Positions 1,057 to 11,074 of a stretch of DNA of 20,000 bases are shown one piece after another (within the stretch, counting starts at the first letter, position 1; each line of letters begins with the position of its first letter). A program made the position numbers and the translations under genes. The notes beneath the pieces are model-generated. The model was not told the DNA's origin. It searched no databases and worked only from the letters and a program-made list of their open reading frames with translations. Source of the stretch: an uncultured virus (IMG/VR IMGVR_UViG_3300009177_000003) (lineage: Duplodnaviria; Heunggongvirae; Uroviricota; Caudoviricetes); the IMG/VR virus record IMGVR_UViG_3300009177_000003; one strand, given 5' to 3'.

Positions 1057-1319
1057 GCCCAGCCTTCCCGCTCCGGGTCCGGTGCCCGCCCGATCATGCC
1101 AGTGTAGCGCTGGACCATGACCTCAACGTCGGCCAGGGGGACCGGGATCTCATGCAGCACTCGGCCGCTACCGAACATCGCGCGGGCACTGATCTCGAGC
1201 GCCCGTTCGCGTGAATAGCGTCCAGCCTCACTGATACGCTGCGTGTAGCCTATCTCGCCCGGCCCCCACCAAGCCGAGTGCTCGTGCGACCAGATCAGGT
1301 AGTCGCGTGCCTCGCTAAT
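1053..1319 (-). CDS. Phage hypothetical protein (YLIWSHEHSAWW...GYT...AGRYS type), missed by the ORF track; non-canonical start
   Basis: 88-codon open frame exactly filling the gap, TGA overlapping the next ATG; GGAGG 8 nt before an in-frame ATT. Confidence 0.7.
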   Translation of the reverse strand: MSEARDYLIWSHEHSAWWGPGEIGYTQRISEAGRYSRERALEISARAMFGSGRVLHEIPVPLADVEVMVQRYTGMIGRAPDPEREGWA

Positions 1320-1722
1320 CGCCGTTTCCTCCGTTCTGCCAGCCCTGCCCGCTCACTTCATCGAAAATGACTGCCTCATAGGCTCGGATAGCCGCTTGCA
1401 CCGCTCCGTGCAGGAGCTTGGGCTCAATGCGCTCGACCGGGGTCCCCAACCTGGCGCCTAGGGTCTCCATGAGGGCCTGCTTGGCGGCCTCAATGGCTGC
1501 TTCATCGCAGCGATCATTCATCATGTCCCCTCGCGCGTCAGGCTGCGCCCACTCCAGGTCTTCTCGCAGTGTCGCTGCCGAGGCGATGCCAGCGTATCTG
1601 ACGAACACGTAGCTGGCATTGAAGGACGTGATCATCCCCTCCTCAACCTTGCGGCCGGGAAAGTCGCCGTGCTCCCGGTAGATCACTTTTCGGCCGATGT
1701 CCGTGGGTTTTGGCTCGATCAT
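1315..1722 (-). CDS. Hypothetical protein (SH3-like N-terminal half plus helical C-terminal half)
   Basis: Strong RBS (AGGAGG/AGGA) before ATG; 135 aa. Confidence 0.75.
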   Translation of the reverse strand: MIEPKPTDIGRKVIYREHGDFPGRKVEEGMITSFNASYVFVRYAGIASAATLREDLEWAQPDARGDMMNDRCDEAAIEAAKQALMETLGARLGTPVERIEPKLLHGAVQAAIRAYEAVIFDEVSGQGWQNGGNGD

Positions 1723-1726
1723 TTTC

Positions 1727-1765
1727 CTAATTCCTCCTAGCGCGATAAACGGCCTTATCGCGCCT
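1727..1765. repeat. Junction element F: TAGCGCGATAA-ACGGCC-TTATCGCGCCT plus CTAATTCCTCCTAG leader
   Basis: Perfect 9-bp inverted repeat around a 6-bp spacer; related to five other intergenic elements. Confidence 0.85.
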
Positions 1766-1774
1766 GACCGACGA

Positions 1775-2032
1775 TCACGCCCATTTCCCGCCGGCAGGCT
1801 TGATGATTAGGTTCGGCTTATCCTTCGAGAACTCTAGCGGCGTTCCTGGTGGATCAATCCGCTCGATGATGACCTGAAAGCCGCTGACGTTGAGCCGGGT
1901 GCCAACCTTCGGCAGCGGCTTGCCGCGTGGTCCCTTGGTTCGCCAGAGCAAGGTGAAGCGTGGCAGTTGGCCATCTACGCGACGGCAGATCAGTGCGTGC
2001 TTCTGGTCCAGATCGGGGATGCTGTCGCTCAT
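1775..2032 (-). CDS. Hypothetical protein (cassette-like module)
   Basis: 85 aa ORF filling the space between junctions F and E. Confidence 0.7.
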   Translation of the reverse strand: MSDSIPDLDQKHALICRRVDGQLPRFTLLWRTKGPRGKPLPKVGTRLNVSGFQVIIERIDPPGTPLEFSKDKPNLIIKPAGGKWA

Positions 2033-2064
2033 GTTTCGCTTCCGGTGGACGGCGGCTCTCTCAT

Positions 2065-2120
2065 TGATTTCCCTCCCTCTTTTGCCAGTCGGGCGCGGTA
2101 ACTGAGCTGTTATCGCGCGT
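2065..2120. repeat. Junction element E (~54-bp direct repeat copy 1, contains GGGCGCGGTAA-CTGAGCTG-TTATCGCGCGT)
   Basis: Near-identical to 2397-2453; contains the TAA stop of the upstream gene and a GAGGGAGG RBS on the minus strand. Confidence 0.9.
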
Positions 2121-2391
2121 CGTCAGCGTCCTGTAGGCCCATGACAACGTATCCAGGCTCAATGCCAAGCTGGCCGCCCGTCAGGATGTAGCTGATCCGC
2201 TTCCGCACTTCCTTGAAGCTGTAGGAGCCGGGTTCCGTTGTCGAAAGCCCGGTTTTTCGTTCCGTGCACCGCAGCACGAGGATATCGCCACGCTGAAAGC
2301 CGCGATCATCCCGGCGAACCTCAAAGGGCTTCGCGCCGGACGCCACCGCCTCCCAGTAGGGCTGCCACGTTTTCAGGACGTGCTCGGTCAT
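2110..2391 (-). CDS. DUF3850 / ASCH (PUA-like) domain protein
   Basis: HVLKTWQPYWEAVASGAKPFEVRRDDRGFQRGDILVL and GYVVMG signature. Confidence 0.88.
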   Translation of the reverse strand: MTEHVLKTWQPYWEAVASGAKPFEVRRDDRGFQRGDILVLRCTERKTGLSTTEPGSYSFKEVRKRISYILTGGQLGIEPGYVVMGLQDADDAR

Positions 2392-2396
2392 CCGCC

Positions 2397-2453
2397 TGAT
2401 TTCCCTTCCTCTTTTGCCGGCTCAGCGCGGGTAACTGAGCTGTTATCGCGCCC
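2397..2453. repeat. Junction element D (~54-bp direct repeat copy 2, contains AGCGCGGGTAA-CTGAGCTG-TTATCGCGCCC)
   Basis: Near-identical to 2065-2120. Confidence 0.9.
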
Positions 2454-2724
2454 GGCCAACGTCTACGGAGGCGCCAAGCCAGTTGGCTGCCATTGCATAG
2501 AAAACGTGATCTGCGGCTGCCTCGCCCGGAGAATCGCCGCGCGGTCCCAGTTCAAACTGCTGCCCCGTTCCAGCCTGATCTATTTGCCTTTCCAGGGCGG
2601 CGATGGCCCGCAGCATATTGCTGGCGAGTCGTTCGTGAAACGCTAGAAGGTGCTCCGGCGGAAGCTGAGCGAGCCACAGGTCGTATTCAACGACCGGATC
2701 GTCGAGGTCGAGATCGCTCTGCAT
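2443..2724 (-). CDS. Hypothetical helical protein (cassette-like module)
   Basis: AGGAG RBS; TAA stop lies inside junction D. Confidence 0.7.
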   Translation of the reverse strand: MQSDLDLDDPVVEYDLWLAQLPPEHLLAFHERLASNMLRAIAALERQIDQAGTGQQFELGPRGDSPGEAAADHVFYAMAANWLGASVDVGRAR

Positions 2725-2733
2725 TGGGCGCTC

Positions 2734-2773
2734 CTAAATTCCACTAGGCGCGAGAAGCGGGACTATGGCGCCC
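2734..2773. repeat. Junction element C: CTAAATTCCACTAG leader plus AGGCGCGAGAA-GCGGGA-CTATGGCGCCC
   Basis: Degenerate 11-6-11 inverted repeat; contains the TAG stop of the upstream gene. Confidence 0.75.
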
Positions 2774-2999
2774 GGCTTAGGGCCTCCCTGATCTTGTCCA
2801 TGGTCCCTGCGTTCGGCGCCGTGTTGAACATCATGTCGTCCACCACCTCCTGAAGCAGCGAGCGCAGCCGCCCGATCTCTTCATCAGACACCCGCAGCAT
2901 CTCGCGGGCTGCACGCATCGCAGCTTCACGGTCTTGCTCGTAGGCGCTGTCGTCCGATTGCAACCAGTCAGCCGCCGCCTCAATGCGAGCATGGCTCAT
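2763..2999 (-). CDS. Hypothetical coiled-coil protein (MSHARIE...), cassette-like module
   Basis: Start moved to ATG at 2999 after a GGGAG RBS, which removes the overlap with the upstream gene. Confidence 0.7.
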   Translation of the reverse strand: MSHARIEAAADWLQSDDSAYEQDREAAMRAAREMLRVSDEEIGRLRSLLQEVVDDMMFNTAPNAGTMDKIREALSRAP

Positions 3000-3009
3000 G
3001 TTTCGCTCC

Positions 3010-3028
3010 CTAATTCCACTAGGCGCGG
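3010..3028. repeat. Junction element B (half site): CTAATTCCACTAGGCGCGG
   Basis: Matches the leader and one arm of junction C; contains the TAG stop of the HNH gene. Confidence 0.75.
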
Positions 3029-3513
3029 TCGGCATAGCGCCATCCACTCATCGATCGCGAGGCGCGGTAGCGTGCTGTTGCAGGGTGTATCCCATAATGC
3101 CGGGCCGCTGATTTTATTGACGGGAAGAGACCATCGGGCGTCTGGCACGCTTTGGCCTGCCTTGAGTCGGCGCCATTTTCCTTCGCGGAACCACAGAAGA
3201 TATTGCCCAGCTCATAGGGGCCGCGGTCGTTGAATCGGCACATACGCCACTGTCCCAAACCCTTCCCGCGTTCCGCTCCTGGCCCTTTTCGAGCAAGGGC
3301 ATCGTGCCACCAGTTGAACCACGCCTCATAAGTCAGATTGAATTCGATGCCACGTCTGGCTGCCTGTTTTCTGTGTGCCTCACAGGCCATCCGGCTGAGC
3401 ATGTGGCCCTTGCAACAGTCCCGACAAAAGGTCGCACGGCCGTCTGCCGAGAACATGGTGTAGTGAAAATCGGCGATGTCTTTGTTTTCCCCACACTTTT
3501 CGCAATGCTTCAT
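3019..3513 (-). CDS. Putative HNH-like homing endonuclease (N-terminal Zn ribbon, C-terminal NUMOD1-like HTH)
   Basis: CEKC...CRDC; GIEFNLTYEAW; MCRFNDRGPYELGNIF; FPSIKSAARHYGI; visibly lower GC than flanks. Confidence 0.75.
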   Translation of the reverse strand: MKHCEKCGENKDIADFHYTMFSADGRATFCRDCCKGHMLSRMACEAHRKQAARRGIEFNLTYEAWFNWWHDALARKGPGAERGKGLGQWRMCRFNDRGPYELGNIFCGSAKENGADSRQAKACQTPDGLFPSIKSAARHYGIHPATARYRASRSMSGWRYADRA

Positions 3514-3524
3514 GGGTGCCTCGG

Positions 3525-3564
3525 GTAAATTCCACTACTCCACATAATCGGGGTTATCGCGCCT
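3525..3564. repeat. Junction element A: GTAAATTCCACTAC leader plus ACTCCACATAA-TCGGGG-TTATCGCGCCT
   Basis: Minus strand reads AGGCGCGATAA CCCCGA TTATGTGGAGT, a dif-like 11-6-11 geometry. Confidence 0.8.
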
Positions 3565-3781
3565 AGGTGCCCTCCGGTGCGATTTCCGGCACGCTCCGCT
3601 CGATCTCGTCGGCGATGAAGCGCAACATCCGCGACAGCCCTGCGGTGACGGCCGGCGTCGCCTGAACCGAGAACCCACTCCCCGCAGGGCCGCCGATCAC
3701 CACAACGATCACGCCCTCTGCCGCCGCCTGCTCGCGGACGAGCGTCGCGAGGTCGTCGTATTTTCCGGGTCCGGCTGGCAT
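3563..3781 (-). CDS. Small phage hypothetical protein
   Basis: 72 aa, GGAGG upstream, GPGKYDDL...GSGFSVQ. Confidence 0.75.
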   Translation of the reverse strand: MPAGPGKYDDLATLVREQAAAEGVIVVVIGGPAGSGFSVQATPAVTAGLSRMLRFIADEIERSVPEIAPEGT

Positions 3782-3799
3782 AGCTTCTTTTGACCTCCG

Positions 3800-3994
3800 T
3801 CATCCACCCCCTCGAATCCGGCGAAGCAGCTGCGACAGGCGCCATGGCCGCATCGCCCTGGCCTCGGCCAGCTGCTGGCGCAGCGCCTCCGCGGGGCATT
3901 CCATCTCCTTTTCTTTCGGCAGCGAGGCGCACATCCCGCACGTCTCGACCCCCCACCACCGGGCGCCGCAGCGCGGACAGCGCCAGGGTTTCAT
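3800..3994 (-). CDS. Small Zn-ribbon protein
   Basis: CPRC...CGMC; ATGA coupling. Confidence 0.65.
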   Translation of the reverse strand: MKPWRCPRCGARWWGVETCGMCASLPKEKEMECPAEALRQQLAEARAMRPWRLSQLLRRIRGGG

Positions 3995-4179
3995 TCGTCG
4001 CGTCCCATTTCCCGCAGCGCTTCCTCCCGCTCCTTCGGATCCATCCGCGCCAGGATCTTCTCGATCTCGCGCATCAGCATTTCACAGTACGTGTAGGGAA
4101 AGGCTTCCCACGCGGCCGCGAGATGGACCAACACCACGAGCGAGATCAGCCAAAGCCCGAGTTCGACGGTTAGGATCAT
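3991..4179 (-). CDS. Small membrane protein (MILTVELGLWLISLVVLVHL...)
   Basis: ATGA-coupled on both sides; hydrophobic N-terminus. Confidence 0.65.
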   Translation of the reverse strand: MILTVELGLWLISLVVLVHLAAAWEAFPYTYCEMLMREIEKILARMDPKEREEALREMGRDE

Positions 4180-6832: not shown

Positions 6833-7075
6833 TCATGCAACGGCCTCTCGCGTGGTCTCCTCGGCGCGGCGGCCGGTCCGTGTGATGGCGAACAGCACGA
6901 ACCGCAGGTCGCCGGAGCTCGGCGGGTGTCGGGTCACCAGCTTCCGCGCCACCAATCCGTTCGCCAGCCTCGACGCCTGCGAGCGCGATATCCCCATCAG
7001 CGAGGCGATCGAGCCGAGCGCCAGCCGCTCGTGTGTCGCCAGCACGCCCAGCAGCTGTCGCTCGCGCGGTGTCAT
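6833..7075 (-). CDS. MarR-like winged helix protein
   Basis: IASLMGISRSQASRLANGLVARKLVTR...DLR...ITRTGR. Confidence 0.85.
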   Translation of the reverse strand: MTPRERQLLGVLATHERLALGSIASLMGISRSQASRLANGLVARKLVTRHPPSSGDLRFVLFAITRTGRRAEETTREAVA

Positions 7076-8544
7076 GCTGCGGCCGCCGGCAGCTCGTTGT
7101 GCTTCGCGGTGAACTCGGCATTGATCCGGTTGAACAGCGGCGGCTTGCTGGTCCGCAGCTTGGCGATCTGCGGCCGGATCTCGGAGACTAGGCGATCGAA
7201 GTCCTTCCGCCCGTTGGCGTCCGCCGTGATCTTCTGGATCTTCGTGACCTGCGCATCGACCCAGACCGCGTCCTCATCCTGCGCCGGCGGCGGCGCGGGC
7301 TCCTTCATCCAGTCCGGCACCACATCGCCGTCGTCTTCCTCGGCGCGCCGTTGCGCCTCGCCACGGTCGAAGTTGTCCATCATCCGACCGACGACTGACG
7401 CCGGCTCTTGCAGATCGACCAACAACGGTCCGACGGCTGGGTAGGTCCTGGCCGCGGCCAAGGCGTCGGCGTTGTGGTGCAGCAGGTTCGGCCGCTCGAA
7501 GCCCGGCGTCCGCTCCCATTCCTTGAGCATCAGACGGGCCCAGCGCGCCGGGTCGACGGTCAGCTCGCCGTCGGTCTCGCCGTTGGCGTCGAACACCGGG
7601 AAGTCGAAGCCCGGCGGCGGCGTTGCGACCTTCTGCGCCAGCCGCTTGCGAGCGGCGCCGAGCGCTGCGGCGATCTCCACCTGCGCCGGCTTGGGTGCTT
7701 TGTCGACGTGCTCGCGCACGATCTGCACGAGCTCCTCGAGCTTCTCCGCCGTCGGCTCGCTGGCGAAGGCCGCCTTCAGCCGATCGACTTCCGCTCGCTC
7801 GCCGCGGGCCAGCCGTTGCTTCCAGTCCCGCGGGGGAGGGGCGACTGTCGTGTCGGGCTGGCGTGGGGGCTGCTCGCGCTTCACCTGATCGCGGCGTTCG
7901 AGGCTCTGGCTCCGCTGTCGGCCGCCGTCGTCGTCCTGGGAGCTTGCATTGCCGTCGATTTCCTCGCGGCGCATCGCAATGCCGATCGCGCGGCAGAGCA
8001 GGCCACGCTGGACGTAGGTTATCGACGCCTGCTGCCCCTGGATGACCGTCTTGTTGGCGGTCCCCTGCGGTCCCATCGTGTCGGCCGGCGTGTCGGGGGC
8101 GAAATACTCCTCCTCGTGTCCGGCCGCGTGGCGGACGATGCACTTGAGGCGGATCAGCTCGGTGCCGGTCGGCACGGTGTCGAACGAGACGCTGAACCCG
8201 TGCGCGGTCCAGATCTGGTAGCACGCCTCCCACAGATCGCCGTAGTCGGTGTACTTGCCCTTGCCTTCCTGGTTGGGCGTGTCTTTATCCAACACCGGGA
8301 GCGCTCGCTGCATTGCCGGCAAGGCGGCATAGAAGGCGATGCGGGCGGCGTCGGCGCGATCGGCCTTCTCCCATTCACGCTGCTTTTCCTGCGTGATGAT
8401 CCAGGTTTCCGCCAGCGTCTTCAGCTTGTCGGCGTCGATCGCCGGGTTCATCGCCATCCGGGTCAGAAAATCGTCCGGCGCCTCGGCCACATGATTTCCG
8501 TTCGTCGGCACGACAGTCGTGCCGGGCTTCTGATCGTCGCTCAT
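7072..8544 (-). CDS. ERF-family ssDNA annealing protein with long C-terminal extension
   Basis: AFYAALPAMQRALP..K..N..KY..Y.DL...HGFSVSF...C..RH..GH.E...QASITYVQR; TGATG-coupled start at 8544. Confidence 0.82.
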   Translation of the reverse strand: MSDDQKPGTTVVPTNGNHVAEAPDDFLTRMAMNPAIDADKLKTLAETWIITQEKQREWEKADRADAARIAFYAALPAMQRALPVLDKDTPNQEGKGKYTDYGDLWEACYQIWTAHGFSVSFDTVPTGTELIRLKCIVRHAAGHEEEYFAPDTPADTMGPQGTANKTVIQGQQASITYVQRGLLCRAIGIAMRREEIDGNASSQDDDGGRQRSQSLERRDQVKREQPPRQPDTTVAPPPRDWKQRLARGERAEVDRLKAAFASEPTAEKLEELVQIVREHVDKAPKPAQVEIAAALGAARKRLAQKVATPPPGFDFPVFDANGETDGELTVDPARWARLMLKEWERTPGFERPNLLHHNADALAAARTYPAVGPLLVDLQEPASVVGRMMDNFDRGEAQRRAEEDDGDVVPDWMKEPAPPPAQDEDAVWVDAQVTKIQKITADANGRKDFDRLVSEIRPQIAKLRTSKPPLFNRINAEFTAKHNELPAAAA

Positions 8545-9338
8545 CAGCGGATACCGAGCGAGGCGACTTCCACCCAACGAATACCCGGCACCTTGGTCGT
8601 CGGCCGTCCGGTTGCCTTGTCACGCTGCTTCATCGCCGCTTTGATGGCGGAGTCATTGATCATCAAATAAGCCAGCGGAATCTTATCGAAGTCCTCGATC
8701 TCGTACTCCCAGCGGGTGCGGACCGAGGCGACGGCACCGTAATGACCTACCGTTTTCGCCAGCTGGGCCGGCTTGCCGGCGGCGATCTCCGCGGCGTTCC
8801 TTGCCGCCCTGGCAGAGTCCGCGGCGGCATGGGCCTGTCCGTCGTCCGGATCGAAGATGCCGCGCCGCTGCACTGCGGCCGCAGCCTCGGCATCGCGCCG
8901 TGCGCGTTCCGCGGCTTCCGCGGCCCGGCGCTGCGCTTCGGCGCGGGCGGCCGCCGCTTTGCGGGTCTGGTAGTCGAGCAGAATGGCGCGGGCCTGCTGC
9001 AGCGGGGCGCCCAGCGTGGTCATGAACCTGTCGCGCCAGCCATCCACCGTCTTGCCGGCGTCGATGAAGGGGCGCTTTTCGGCGAGGATCCGCTCTCTCG
9101 CGGCGCGCTCCATATCGCCGGCGATGCGGATGTTGTCGGTGAACAGCGCGGCGGCTTCGTCGTCCTCGACCTGCGGGTGCGCCTCGATCATTGCGTCGAG
9201 GGCGGGGACGACCTCTTCGTTGCGGCGCTCGACCAGATCGGCGAGGCAGTAGTCGAGCCACTCGGTGACCTGCTGCGCCGACAGCGGCTCGGGAGGCGGC
9301 GGAGCGTTGCTCCCCGTCAGTATGGCGGTGGTTCCCAT
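8544..9338 (-). CDS. Phage coiled-coil protein of the recombination module
   Basis: GSNAPP N-terminus; EKRPF...GKTVD; Ala-rich coil; RTRWEYEIEDFDKIP...VPGIR C-terminus. Confidence 0.8.
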   Translation of the reverse strand: MGTTAILTGSNAPPPPEPLSAQQVTEWLDYCLADLVERRNEEVVPALDAMIEAHPQVEDDEAAALFTDNIRIAGDMERAARERILAEKRPFIDAGKTVDGWRDRFMTTLGAPLQQARAILLDYQTRKAAAARAEAQRRAAEAAERARRDAEAAAAVQRRGIFDPDDGQAHAAADSARAARNAAEIAAGKPAQLAKTVGHYGAVASVRTRWEYEIEDFDKIPLAYLMINDSAIKAAMKQRDKATGRPTTKVPGIRWVEVASLGIR

Positions 9339-9700
9339 GATTGCGGTTTCCTTGGATAGAGAGGCCGCAGATTGAGGCGGTCTATCGCGCGACGCGGCCA
9401 GCACGCGGGATGATCGGGGTTGTTCTCGGCGGCCCAGGATTTGATAGAGAGCAGCCAGGAATAAGTCTCAGCGTCGATGCGTTCACCGTAGGCGTGGATG
9501 TTGGAGACGCCCTCAGCGCGCCACGGGTCCGGATTGGCTGGGTGGGTGAACCCGTCGATCGTGGCCTGCCAGCCATCGCTGGTTGACTCGATCCGGCAGG
9601 GCACCTGCCAGCCGCCGCGGACGAGGCGGAGCCGGAAATAACCGGGCTCGACGATATCGACGAAACGGGCCTGGGAGGCTGCGTGGCGAGGGTTGCTCAC
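9317..9700 (-). CDS. Phage hypothetical protein (EPGYFRLRLVRGGWQVPCRI)
   Basis: GTGA-coupled to the HNH gene. Confidence 0.75.
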   Translation of the reverse strand: MSNPRHAASQARFVDIVEPGYFRLRLVRGGWQVPCRIESTSDGWQATIDGFTHPANPDPWRAEGVSNIHAYGERIDAETYSWLLSIKSWAAENNPDHPACWPRRAIDRLNLRPLYPRKPQSWEPPPY

Positions 9701-10170
9701 GCCACGTGCTGCCAAGATTTGCGGGTGACGATATGAGAGATTGCTGCGCGGCTTACGCCGTAGATCTTACCCAAGTCGGCATAGCTCTTTTGGCCAGTGG
9801 CATACTGCCGCCTGATCGACGTGACGTTCTCTTCGGTCAGAACGGGGGGCCGGCCAGCGCCACGTCGCAGGCCAAGATCGGCCTTGCGCTTCAAATCAGC
9901 CGCGTTCTCCGCTGGCGAGCCAAGGAATAAGTGGCGTGGGTTACAGCAGGCCGGGACATCACACCGATGGCAGACATGCTTGCCTTGTGGGATTTCGCCT
10001 ATCCAGAGCCGATAAGCGGATTTGGCCGCAGTCTCTCGTCGACCATCAGGACTTTCGGATAATCCGTAGCCGGCGCCCGGCCTTCCATCTACCGGTCCTG
10101 TCCAAAGCCAACATTCCTCGTCGGATCCGCGCCTGATACGGGCTTCAAAAACATCAACTTTCCACGCCAT
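9697..10170 (-). CDS. HNH endonuclease (HNH_3 type) with C-terminal HTH
   Basis: CWLWTG...GYG...VCHRCDVPACCNPRHLFLGS..EN; LGKIYGVSRAAISHIV. Confidence 0.92.
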   Translation of the reverse strand: MAWKVDVFEARIRRGSDEECWLWTGPVDGRPGAGYGLSESPDGRRETAAKSAYRLWIGEIPQGKHVCHRCDVPACCNPRHLFLGSPAENAADLKRKADLGLRRGAGRPPVLTEENVTSIRRQYATGQKSYADLGKIYGVSRAAISHIVTRKSWQHVA

Positions 10171-10318: not shown

Positions 10319-11074
10319 CTAATTCGGGATGATCGCTCGGACGCGGGTCGCCGCTACGATCTTCTGATCGTAGAGCGTCTCTCCCTTGAACTGGAAGATC
10401 GTCCAGCGTCCATTGGGTTGGAGCTTGAGCTGGGCCGCCAGTGAGGTCAGCCCATCAGCGAGACGGTAGAAGCATAAACGATCGTTCATCTCGGTCGGAT
10501 CGAAGGTCTCCGACATCGGTTCGGCCAGGAGTTTGTAGTCCTTTCCGAGGAATGGTCGAAGCGCGTCGTCCACGGCAGCGATTGCTATAACTGGGATGTC
10601 CGGATCGGCCGGTTCACCATAGTCGAACGCACCAAAATTACCCCCGTCTGGCATGATGATAACCCGTGCAGAGGTGTCGCTGATCGTGCCGACGATACGG
10701 ATTACACGCCGGCGGAGCAACCACGTTTCTTTCTTCCCGAGAATTTCCTCAACCGGAACGTCCAACAGCTCCGCGTAGCGACGCGCTGTTACGTTGTTCA
10801 ACGCGCGGTCGCCTCTTTCGTGGGAATAATATACTGAATAATTTATTTCGTGTTTGCGCGCAAAACCCTTGGCTGTTTTGAAGTGTCTTTCGCGCGCCGC
10901 CCTCAACCGTGCGGCGACCTCCTGATCAGCGTTTGCGCTTGCTCGTGCGCTTCGGTCCCTTTCCTCGACGAGCCGTATTGCTTCCTCAAAGGAGACCTCG
11001 ACGTCTGGGTTCTGCTCGACGTCTCTGTTCTGAGTGCCCGTGTCTGTCATAGCGGCATCGCTCGGGTTATCCAC
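10319..11074 (-). CDS. CI-like XRE repressor with degenerate S24-like C-terminal domain
   Basis: RLRAARERHFKTAKGFARKHEINYSVYYSHERGDR...YAELLDVPVEEIL; divergent from Cro-like gene; start may be 11050. Confidence 0.85.
   Translation of the reverse strand: MDNPSDAAMTDTGTQNRDVEQNPDVEVSFEEAIRLVEERDRSARASANADQEVAARLRAARERHFKTAKGFARKHEINYSVYYSHERGDRALNNVTARRYAELLDVPVEEILGKKETWLLRRRVIRIVGTISDTSARVIIMPDGGNFGAFDYGEPADPDIPVIAIAAVDDALRPFLGKDYKLLAEPMSETFDPTEMNDRLCFYRLADGLTSLAAQLKLQPNGRWTIFQFKGETLYDQKIVAATRVRAIIPN

Follow-up and report, generated by a model that had tools for sequence, protein, structure and literature searches.

A repeated dyad element at six accessory-gene junctions of an uncultured tailed phage and its likeness to a recombinase-linked site of Acetobacteraceae

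Elements and genes of the array

The window analysed here is the whole 20,000-nucleotide stretch of DNA from an uncultured virus of the Caudoviricetes (IMG/VR IMGVR_UViG_3300009177_000003), in which six consecutive gene junctions, located on the minus (coding) strand between positions 1700 and 3600, bear related sequences. These elements, named A to F, have consensus arms CTAC-GCGCGATAA and TTATCGCGC-GTAG that form an inverted repeat of ~13-16 bp round a 6-8-bp centre of free sequence, and in most copies a 3' extension TGGAATT follows. They constitute direct repeats and occupy six consecutive junctions where small accessory genes meet, in the most distal part of a leftward early operon, and each unit runs in the order right arm, tail, ribosome site, gene, left arm and spacer. 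Four of the copies are full (A, D, E and F) and two are decayed (B and C), as follows:

Element A, 3527..3569, minus strand: (CCTAG)GCGCGATAA, spacer CCCCGA, a degenerate right arm TTATGTGGA and the tail GTAGTGGAATTT; between g8 and g7
Element B, 3012..3041, minus strand: decayed; its only clear part is CGCGCC (the end of the right arm) followed by TAGTGGAATT
Element C, 2736..2773, minus strand: degenerate; GCGCCATAG-TCCCGC-TTCTCGCGC, then CTAGTGGAATTT; matches the profile
Element D, 2392..2451 (core 2425-2451), minus strand: GCGCGATAA-CAGCTCAG-TTACCCGCGC and a tail of ~33 nt up to the ATG of g4
Element E, 2065..2118 (core 2093-2118), minus strand: GCGCGATAA-CAGCTCAG-TTACCGCGC and a tail up to the ATG at 2064
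Element F, 1729..1765, minus strand: perfect dyad GCGCGATAA-GGCCGT-TTATCGCGC followed by TAGGAGGAATT; between g3 and g2; matches the profile

The genes separated by these elements, together with those that border the array, are:

g8, 3563..3781, minus strand: 72 amino acids (aa), the gene ahead of the array
g7, 3019..3513, minus strand: 164 aa, zinc-ribbon EndoVII/HNH-like by PHROG matches
g6, 2763..2999, minus strand: 78 aa, no family
g5, 2443..2724, minus strand: 93 aa, no family
g4, 2110..2391, minus strand: 93 aa, DUF3850/ASCH (Pfam PF12961, 2.9e-23)
g3, 1775..2032, minus strand: 85 aa, with a mini-ORF (open reading frame) of 11 codons ahead
g2, 1315..1722, minus strand: 135 aa, the last gene, behind the array

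We found that the sequences read as a first-pass annotation of this DNA had claimed, namely as one element family at the six junctions. The pattern GCGCGATAA-N4-10-TTA has five matches against a chance expectation of 0.01, and five or more matches occurred in 0 of 200 shuffles; the matches correspond to four places (A, D and E once each, and F on both strands), F being counted on the plus strand too because it is palindromic. A chance origin of the element is excluded by these shuffles and by flanks that were no part of the search and are kept in other viral contigs (see below). The strict arm (up to one mismatch) and the tail TAGTGGAATT, each searched on its own, gave no further copy in the 42.8-kb phage record that contains the window, which extends to the whole record the earlier statement that the element does not stand elsewhere in the window. 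Conservation of the arms, also claimed, applies to A, D, E and F and not to the degenerate B and C. The 6-8-nt centre was read correctly, and the arms are wider than the 11 bp given (13-16 bp) and frequently followed by the 3' tail.

Element A has an nhmmer profile match with an E value of 2.4e-6 over 45 nt and is 82% identical over 44 nt to the site of another viral contig (L029). Element B, in turn, resembles the full site of a further contig (L143) minus 6 nt, the spacers being alike in type (TGCCGA versus TGCCCA). The tail TAGTGGAATT is exact behind the dyad at A, B and C, F having TAGGAGGAATT instead, and D and E have in common a 3' tail of ~30 nt (..GGCAAAAGAGGRAGGGAAATCA) where TGGAATT otherwise stands.

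A single ORF lies between each pair of elements, and the five ORFs, which the first-pass annotation had described as unrelated, are of 164, 78, 93, 93 and 85 aa from g7 to g3; g4 (DUF3850/ASCH) and g7 (EndoVII/HNH-like) are the only ones of the array with a family. Its placement of the upstream stop codons in or on the element at A to E was likewise confirmed. The stop of g8 is a TAG directly 5' of A, that of g7 is the TAG of the B tail, that of g6 is a TAG within the left arm of C, and those of g5 and g4 are the TAA of the left arm of D and E respectively; the g3 stop (1775-1777) lies ~10 nt ahead of F. The 11-codon mini-ORF (2029-2064, minus strand) starts at the ATG right after the E tail, the same place at which a cassette gene starts in L143, and its TGA overlaps the ATG of g3 (2030-2032). 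It may be the scar of the 5' end of an earlier cassette, or a coupling leader.

The element in other viruses and beside a bacterial recombinase gene

An exact scan for GCGCGATAA-N6-TTATCGCGC retrieved 22 viral contigs, and in ~17-19 of them the unsearched left flank (CA)CCTAC and right flank GTAGTGGAATT are kept; therefore the site is an asymmetric element of ~45 bp with arms of 13-16 bp. Over these 22 loci, L015 and L029 match the phage record at the element, and otherwise only a 125-nt match of 70% in L015 was found. As far as nucleotide comparison tells, the viral contigs with the element number at least 17 and have no other relation to one another. A profile search of ten element-bearing phage records taken whole gave one cluster of 0.7-1.9 kb per genome, and L029/G028 (4 copies), L014/G013 (2), L118 (4-5) and L143 (4) have arrays on a single strand in which one small gene separates successive copies. 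A scan with the D/E-type pattern found L118 again and one chance match inside a gene of an unrelated phage of lower GC (L151).

The sites are frequently incomplete on one side. Among 15 distinct sites found by the right-arm end and the tail alone, the left arm is present in 7-8 and absent in 6-7, and the right arm with its tail is the most constant part of the element. A full site and a right half stand on either side of a YspA gene in G013, and in the complete record G028, which has terminal repeats, a full site is accompanied by one left and two right halves ~200 bp apart. In the latter array (L029; G028 36942-37579) the left half-site has 5 of the 6 spacer bases and lies 160 bp ahead of the full site with the same spacer, and the two right halves after the full site retain the last 2-4 spacer bases; these half-sites look like products of an exchange within the spacer with non-site DNA. 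Also, the flanking genes lie on the other strand from the element in L023, L028 and an Acidiphilium locus (L035). As orientation to the neighbour genes is not fixed there, a role at the level of DNA rather than mRNA is favoured.

In bacteria, one genome per species was scanned for TTATCGCGCSTRGTGSAATT; of the 30 loci retrieved, ~20 belong to Acetobacteraceae, namely to Acidiphilium, Rhodopila and uncultured members. A single Acidiphilium genome bears 10 copies (up to one mismatch) on small contigs, and one metagenome-assembled genome has 5, mostly at contig ends. In five Acetobacteraceae loci the full site lies within ~60 nt upstream of an ORF of ~345 aa with the domains PF00589 (Phage_integrase) and PF02899 (SAM-like N-terminal). 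The best PDB relative of this enzyme is Cre (E 8e-8, over the N-terminal two thirds), and it scores 48 bits against the 330 of the NCBIfam XerC/XerD cut-offs. It is present in 57 of 201 sampled Acetobacteraceae genomes (~a quarter), and homologues are common on plasmids of this family.

The association of site and gene was followed over 33 enzyme loci (30 genomic and 3 plasmid). The pattern CGCGATAA-N6/7-TTATCGCG, with up to one mismatch per arm, occurs in 14 of the 33 upstream regions (11.6 kb) versus 3 matches in the other 119.9 kb, and looser inspection of the upstream regions gave several more sites; the distance to the recombinase gene reaches ~120 nt in Acetobacteraceae. All three plasmids inspected have a related dyad with paired arm changes 60-100 nt upstream of the recombinase gene, and this dyad is the sole pattern match in two of them, the third having one further, looser match. 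The arms covary, for example GGAGCGATAA with TTCTCGCTCC. Furthermore, spacer length tracks enzyme clade: where the enzyme has 58% identity or more to that of Acidiphilium, 8 of 8 loci have a 6-nt spacer, and where it has 54% or less, 5 of 6 have one of 7 nt. One locus with a 7-nt spacer (L099) has the right arm TTACCGCG, as in D and E of the window. A site by the gene, usually one per plasmid, with covarying arms and a spacer that follows the enzyme, is what would be expected of a recombinase and its core site, and we read it as an association. A co-occurring tyrosine recombinase, which the first-pass annotation had suggested looking for, does exist as a Cre/Xer-like gene adjoining the same site, tail included, in Acetobacteraceae, and not in the phage record itself, a case for which that annotation had allowed. 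Among the 22 element-bearing viral records an integrase is present in four; the site-linked enzyme had no tblastn match (E 1e-3 or better) in the 6-kb loci of these records, and at least two of the four integrase genes lie outside those loci.

Further observations were made at the bacterial loci. The recombinase-linked site of L049 has the same 24-bp core as the phage sites of L008, L011 and L021, including the spacer GCGCGG, and this identity would allow recombination between phage and replicon. Directly behind the recombinase gene, L030, L031, L033 and L058 share a conserved ORF of ~235 aa that belongs to no Pfam or NCBIfam family; start and stop overlap, and the product may act as an accessory factor. 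Divergently upstream of the recombinase, L030 and L033 have an Xre-type gene. Three Acidiphilium loci (L035, L038 and L051) contain the same small gene (..MDIQYIDHFTIRSRPQDV.. at the start, ..QRDGDLQKSD at the end), then a degenerate left arm and a conserved right arm, behind which the DNA differs among the three; the conserved right side in Acidiphilium reaches GTAGTGGAATTATTCGGGGGGCTATCGG. Modules of bacterial genomes also seem to have the element as a border. About 10 of the 30 loci of the genome scan fall outside Acetobacteraceae, and several of these are GGTTATCGCGCCTGGTGGAATT with flanks that are similar within the group, which by look is conserved coding sequence and was set aside. These GGTTATCGCGCCTGGTGGAATT loci (L034, L039, L041, L037 and L045; Chloroflexi, Villigracilis and Methylomonas) probably represent a chance likeness to the right half of the element.

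Mosaic relatives and competing readings

Relatives sought via g13, g2, g7 and g5 singly gave none in viral contigs. Via g4 we found L118, a viral contig of 57.9 kb, which is the only one of 12 DUF3850 loci compared that has elements. Its positions 2230-2544 correspond to window 3045-2731 at 98% (the end of g7, B, g6 and C) and 2943-3168 to window 2451-2224 at 98% (D and g4 as far as two thirds of its length). In the interval g5 is replaced by two other small genes, exactly from the C tail to the D left arm; D stands ahead of g4 as in the window, and the shared block begins at the outer edge of its left arm. In the place of g7 there is a paralogue of 32% identity with its own full site ahead. 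In L118 only the first two thirds of the DUF3850 gene remain, and the final 37 nt of g2 follow directly (L118 3168-3221; window 2224 and 1354-1318).

A second relative, L143, has the order YspA, full site, g6, C-type site, other gene, D/E-type site, other gene, F-type site and other gene, so g5 is replaced here too, exactly between C and the next element. The product of g6 is 100% identical in L118, L143 and the metagenome contig L144, in three neighbour contexts. At site C the three contexts agree over g6, the left arm, the spacer (but for one single-nucleotide polymorphism) and right-arm positions 1 and 2, and they differ from position 3 on, a switch point that fits a crossover at the edge of spacer and right arm. 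For the E-type and F-type sites, the element alone is shared between the window and L143 (85-92%, same spacer type) and both neighbour genes differ: F has a copy of 92% between other genes, and an unrelated gene stands between the E-type and F-type sites where the window has g3. The patterns at D, E and F fit a double exchange between matching sites, and equally a homologous exchange between conserved linkers. As to whether breakpoints between relatives map inside the element, a check proposed in the first-pass annotation, the whole-gene replacements are bounded by elements and identity at site C breaks within one, and two breakpoints of L118 lie away from any element.

Except for a 12-bp indel, by which the window is 12 bases longer, the window is IMG/VR record G001 (42.8 kb, 65.5% G+C, ~55% complete by CheckV). 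Terminase, portal and head morphogenesis genes denote a tailed phage, and a weak repressor-like match lies at 10319-11071. The leftward operon encodes an HNH nuclease, an exonuclease, an ERF-family annealing protein (7072-8577), a MarR-like gene and a YspA/SLOG gene, and then comes the array. This operon has two nuclease-like genes, a clear HNH endonuclease at 9697-10170 and the cassette gene g7 at 3019-3513. Megablast of the window against the phage collection gave no match. The window stretch is contained in 24 rhizosphere metagenome runs, with no RNA run among them. Logan contigs from four runs, at a depth of only ~3-7, were without joints, circles or bridges of deleted forms; one contig (X5) matches 1729-1765 (F) alone with different flanks, and another (X4) contains g2 and a slightly differing F copy.

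On these comparisons we favour, with a probability of roughly 0.55, that the elements are core sites of a Cre/Xer-like tyrosine recombinase encoded by the host or a plasmid, which would be used in trans and for which the sites would bound exchangeable single-gene cassettes. Neither a tyrosine recombinase (PF00589) nor a serine recombinase (PF00239) was found in the phage record (~55% complete) or in the complete G028, and therefore we infer an enzyme that comes from the host or a resident plasmid; which enzyme acts, in which host, and its binding, cleavage and place of crossover are likewise only inferred. The recombinase would bind the junction sites of the phage, and recombination at or beside the spacer would take place between phages, plasmids or excised circles with matching sites, by which single genes would be swapped, added or removed. 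Sites with different spacers would act like heterospecific lox sites and prevent the collapse of the array.

Several findings weigh against recombinase core sites, beginning with the lack of a recombinase gene just mentioned. The 6-7 of 15 sites that have no left arm, and B as well, are unusable by the canonical two-arm reaction, and the tail is conserved past the usual 11-13-bp arm, without explanation. D and E are full direct repeats with one spacer in common, and both persist. The junction in L118 of window 2224 (inside g4) to 1354 (the end of g2) is a deletion of ~870 bp with no element at either end, and L144, which has the window order at 98%, diverges 5 nt before E with no element there. 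A g3 homologue in G014 lies in an ordinary operon without elements, which speaks against a purely site-bound process. A search for the host with the window DNA in 401 Acetobacteraceae genomes gave short weak matches only. Finally, ERF-like genes are present in G008, G010, G013 and G014 besides the ERF gene here; with such annealing proteins encoded, homologous exchange at conserved stretches of 30-55 bp is feasible and would give the same mosaics.

This last point is the ground of the main rival, which we regard as possible and clearly less probable than core sites. The elements would be conserved linkers for homologous recombination, like those of the PeSL type, retained because a host protein binds them or as remnants of a plasmid, and ordinary or ERF-promoted exchange over 30-55-bp stretches would shuffle the genes with no site-specific strand exchange. 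The homology blocks at D, E and F run from the outer edge of the element to the start codon, so that both flanking genes can differ with the whole element retained; the breakpoints away from elements indicate that other recombination is active here. According to one report, the PeSL cassettes of T4-type phages consist of a sigma-70-type promoter and a terminator and act by homologous recombination, their shuffling and mini-circles being documented (PMC2839356). As in PeSL, repeated stem-loop motifs flank here small non-essential genes in plastic phage regions, and the differences between relatives map there. Unlike PeSL, the array has no promoter/terminator consensus (0 sigma-70-type promoters and 0 intrinsic terminators in a simple consensus scan of 1200-4000), and its motif equals a recombinase-linked site. 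Linkers leave unexplained a 13-6-13 dyad identical to a site found once per plasmid, next to a recombinase gene, and a spacer length that tracks the enzyme clade. The switch of the C contexts at one point, the edge of spacer and right arm, also argues against them, with only three contexts to count on. The claim of the first-pass annotation, a system of gene-cassette capture and shuffling, is partly supported, as regards element-bounded whole-gene replacement in relatives, which either site-specific or homologous exchange may have produced.

An intercistronic RNA signal, in which a hairpin and an A/U-rich stretch (GGAAUUU) would protect the upstream mRNA, mark processing or tune translation of the next gene, is improbable in our view. 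RNase E prefers sequences that GGA/AUU fits, all copies of the window are on the coding strand with stops inside, and from 6 to 33 nt separate the element, tail included, from the next start (in E, the ATG at 2064). The dyad hairpin folds in D (z -3.2), F (z -2.35) and E (z -1.9), but it is not formed by A (z +1.8), B and C, which are three of the six copies. Against an RNA signal there are further the nearly half of the sites of other phages that have no left arm, stems conserved in sequence with few paired changes between clades and with variable loops, and the reversed or convergent orientation to genes in L023, L028 and L035; Rfam gave no match at E up to 1, and there is no terminator-like site.

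Less probable still is an operator or stoperator, that is, an oriented repressor site that would block transcription through the accessory genes and, on plasmids, autoregulate the recombinase promoter. In bacteria the site does lie in the promoter region of the recombinase, beside a divergent Xre-type gene, and the stoperators of cluster A mycobacteriophages are similar in being oriented sites within short gaps between genes; they are numerous along the genome, and the phage repressor binds them. In contrast, each genome here has its elements gathered in one cluster of 0.7-1.9 kb rather than scattered through the operons; neither the repressor-like nor the MarR-like gene of the phage has a homologue in the other element-bearing phage DNA examined, so no shared repressor was found; and a variable centre of 6-8 nt between arms of 13-16 bp would suit recombinases better than helix-turn-helix dimers.

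Other candidates were rejected: an intrinsic terminator (no T run), an RNase III site (stems probably too short), a protelomerase site (centre not palindromic) and DnaA, Fur, CtrA and LexA boxes, to which the likeness is only partial.

Known systems and significance

The element has the geometry of a tyrosine-recombinase core site, with inverted arms and a 6-8-bp centre, and in this the first-pass annotation was right. It resembles Xer/dif sites in two ~11-bp arms that end in ATAA/TTAT round the centre (GCGCGATAA-N6/8-TTAT..). However, a dif/cer-like site for XerC/D, as had been proposed, does not describe it: the consensus arms are near-perfect inverted repeats and not distinct XerC and XerD arms, only the right arm of A is dif-like, and the enzyme linked to the site is an accessory recombinase distinct from XerC/D. 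In working principle the nearest systems are Cre/loxP of phage P1, pdif modules, integron cassettes and IMEX phages, and in phage genomics the PeSL cassettes. The loxP site has ~13-bp arms and an 8-nt spacer. Here too, inverted arms of ~13 bp enclose a short asymmetric spacer and the site adjoins in bacteria the gene of a ~345-aa Cre-related recombinase, and as in heterospecific lox cassette exchange, sites with different spacers flank swappable genes. Unlike in Cre/loxP, the bacterial enzyme is only distantly related to Cre (E 8e-8), the spacer is of 6-7 nt and not 8, the phages carry arrays of sites without the enzyme, and the 3' tail has no lox counterpart.

As in pdif modules, short Xer-type sites border gene modules and the recombinase is encoded elsewhere. 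The pdif sites have distinct XerC and XerD arms, and their modules are bounded by oppositely oriented sites; in the system described here the copies are on the same strand in the window, L029, L118 and L143, the arms come close to a palindrome, phages carry the sites and the enzyme linked to them is one accessory recombinase. Two reports describe how such Xer-site modules of Acinetobacter plasmids move between replicons via recombinases encoded elsewhere (PMC5790767, PMC10132070). The array also resembles integrons in its rows of promoterless, one-way single-gene cassettes, each ending in an imperfect palindrome into which the stop codon often runs. It differs from them in that no IntI/PF00589 is encoded in the record, attI and Pc were not identified, and the sites are simple dyads of 30-45 bp, three of six unfolded, whereas attC sites, which recombine as single strands, are imperfect hairpins of 57-141 nt with extrahelical bases.

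IMEX elements such as CTX-phi and TLC-phi are likewise integrase-less phages with a dif-like site that depend on a host recombinase; a report describes this use of host Xer via the dif-like site (PMC9226527). These are mostly filamentous, with one attP, and use XerC/D at the chromosomal dif, unlike the tailed phages with arrays considered here, for which the candidate enzyme is of plasmid type and integration is only supposed. The sfx sites of the Rci shufflon are similar in a conserved right arm, a poor or absent left arm and a short spacer; shufflons invert pilin-gene segments on IncI plasmids. Full-text literature searches on the motif, on pdif/Xer modules in phages and on plasmid recombinase sites of Acetobacteraceae gave no description of the element, and a text search for the motif gave only unrelated primer and barcode matches among the matches listed.

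A wider proposal can be put forward only tentatively, with well under even odds: that a plasmid-borne Cre/Xer-like recombinase serves integrase-less tailed phages with Acetobacteraceae-like hosts both for attachment in lysogeny and for an integron-like gene exchange. In lysogeny the lox-like site would be the attachment site for a plasmid or chromosome with the same site, for which the site of L049, equal to that of three phage contigs, is a case to compare. As a platform, rows of sites with different spacers would serve without an integron integrase, and on it a double site-specific crossover would pass single accessory genes between phages, plasmids and chromosomes.

The gain and loss of accessory genes in phages ("morons" and ORFans of the early region) is mostly ascribed to illegitimate or relaxed homologous recombination. 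Here, a defined and searchable site marks cassette borders in several unrelated phages, and the same site is tied to a recombinase family of ~a quarter of the sampled Acetobacteraceae genomes. If the enzyme does act on these sites, phages and plasmids would share a cassette system that is distinct from integrons and from the pdif modules of Acinetobacter. It would also explain lysogeny by integrase-less temperate phages, and the elements would constitute a natural set of heterospecific recombination sites.

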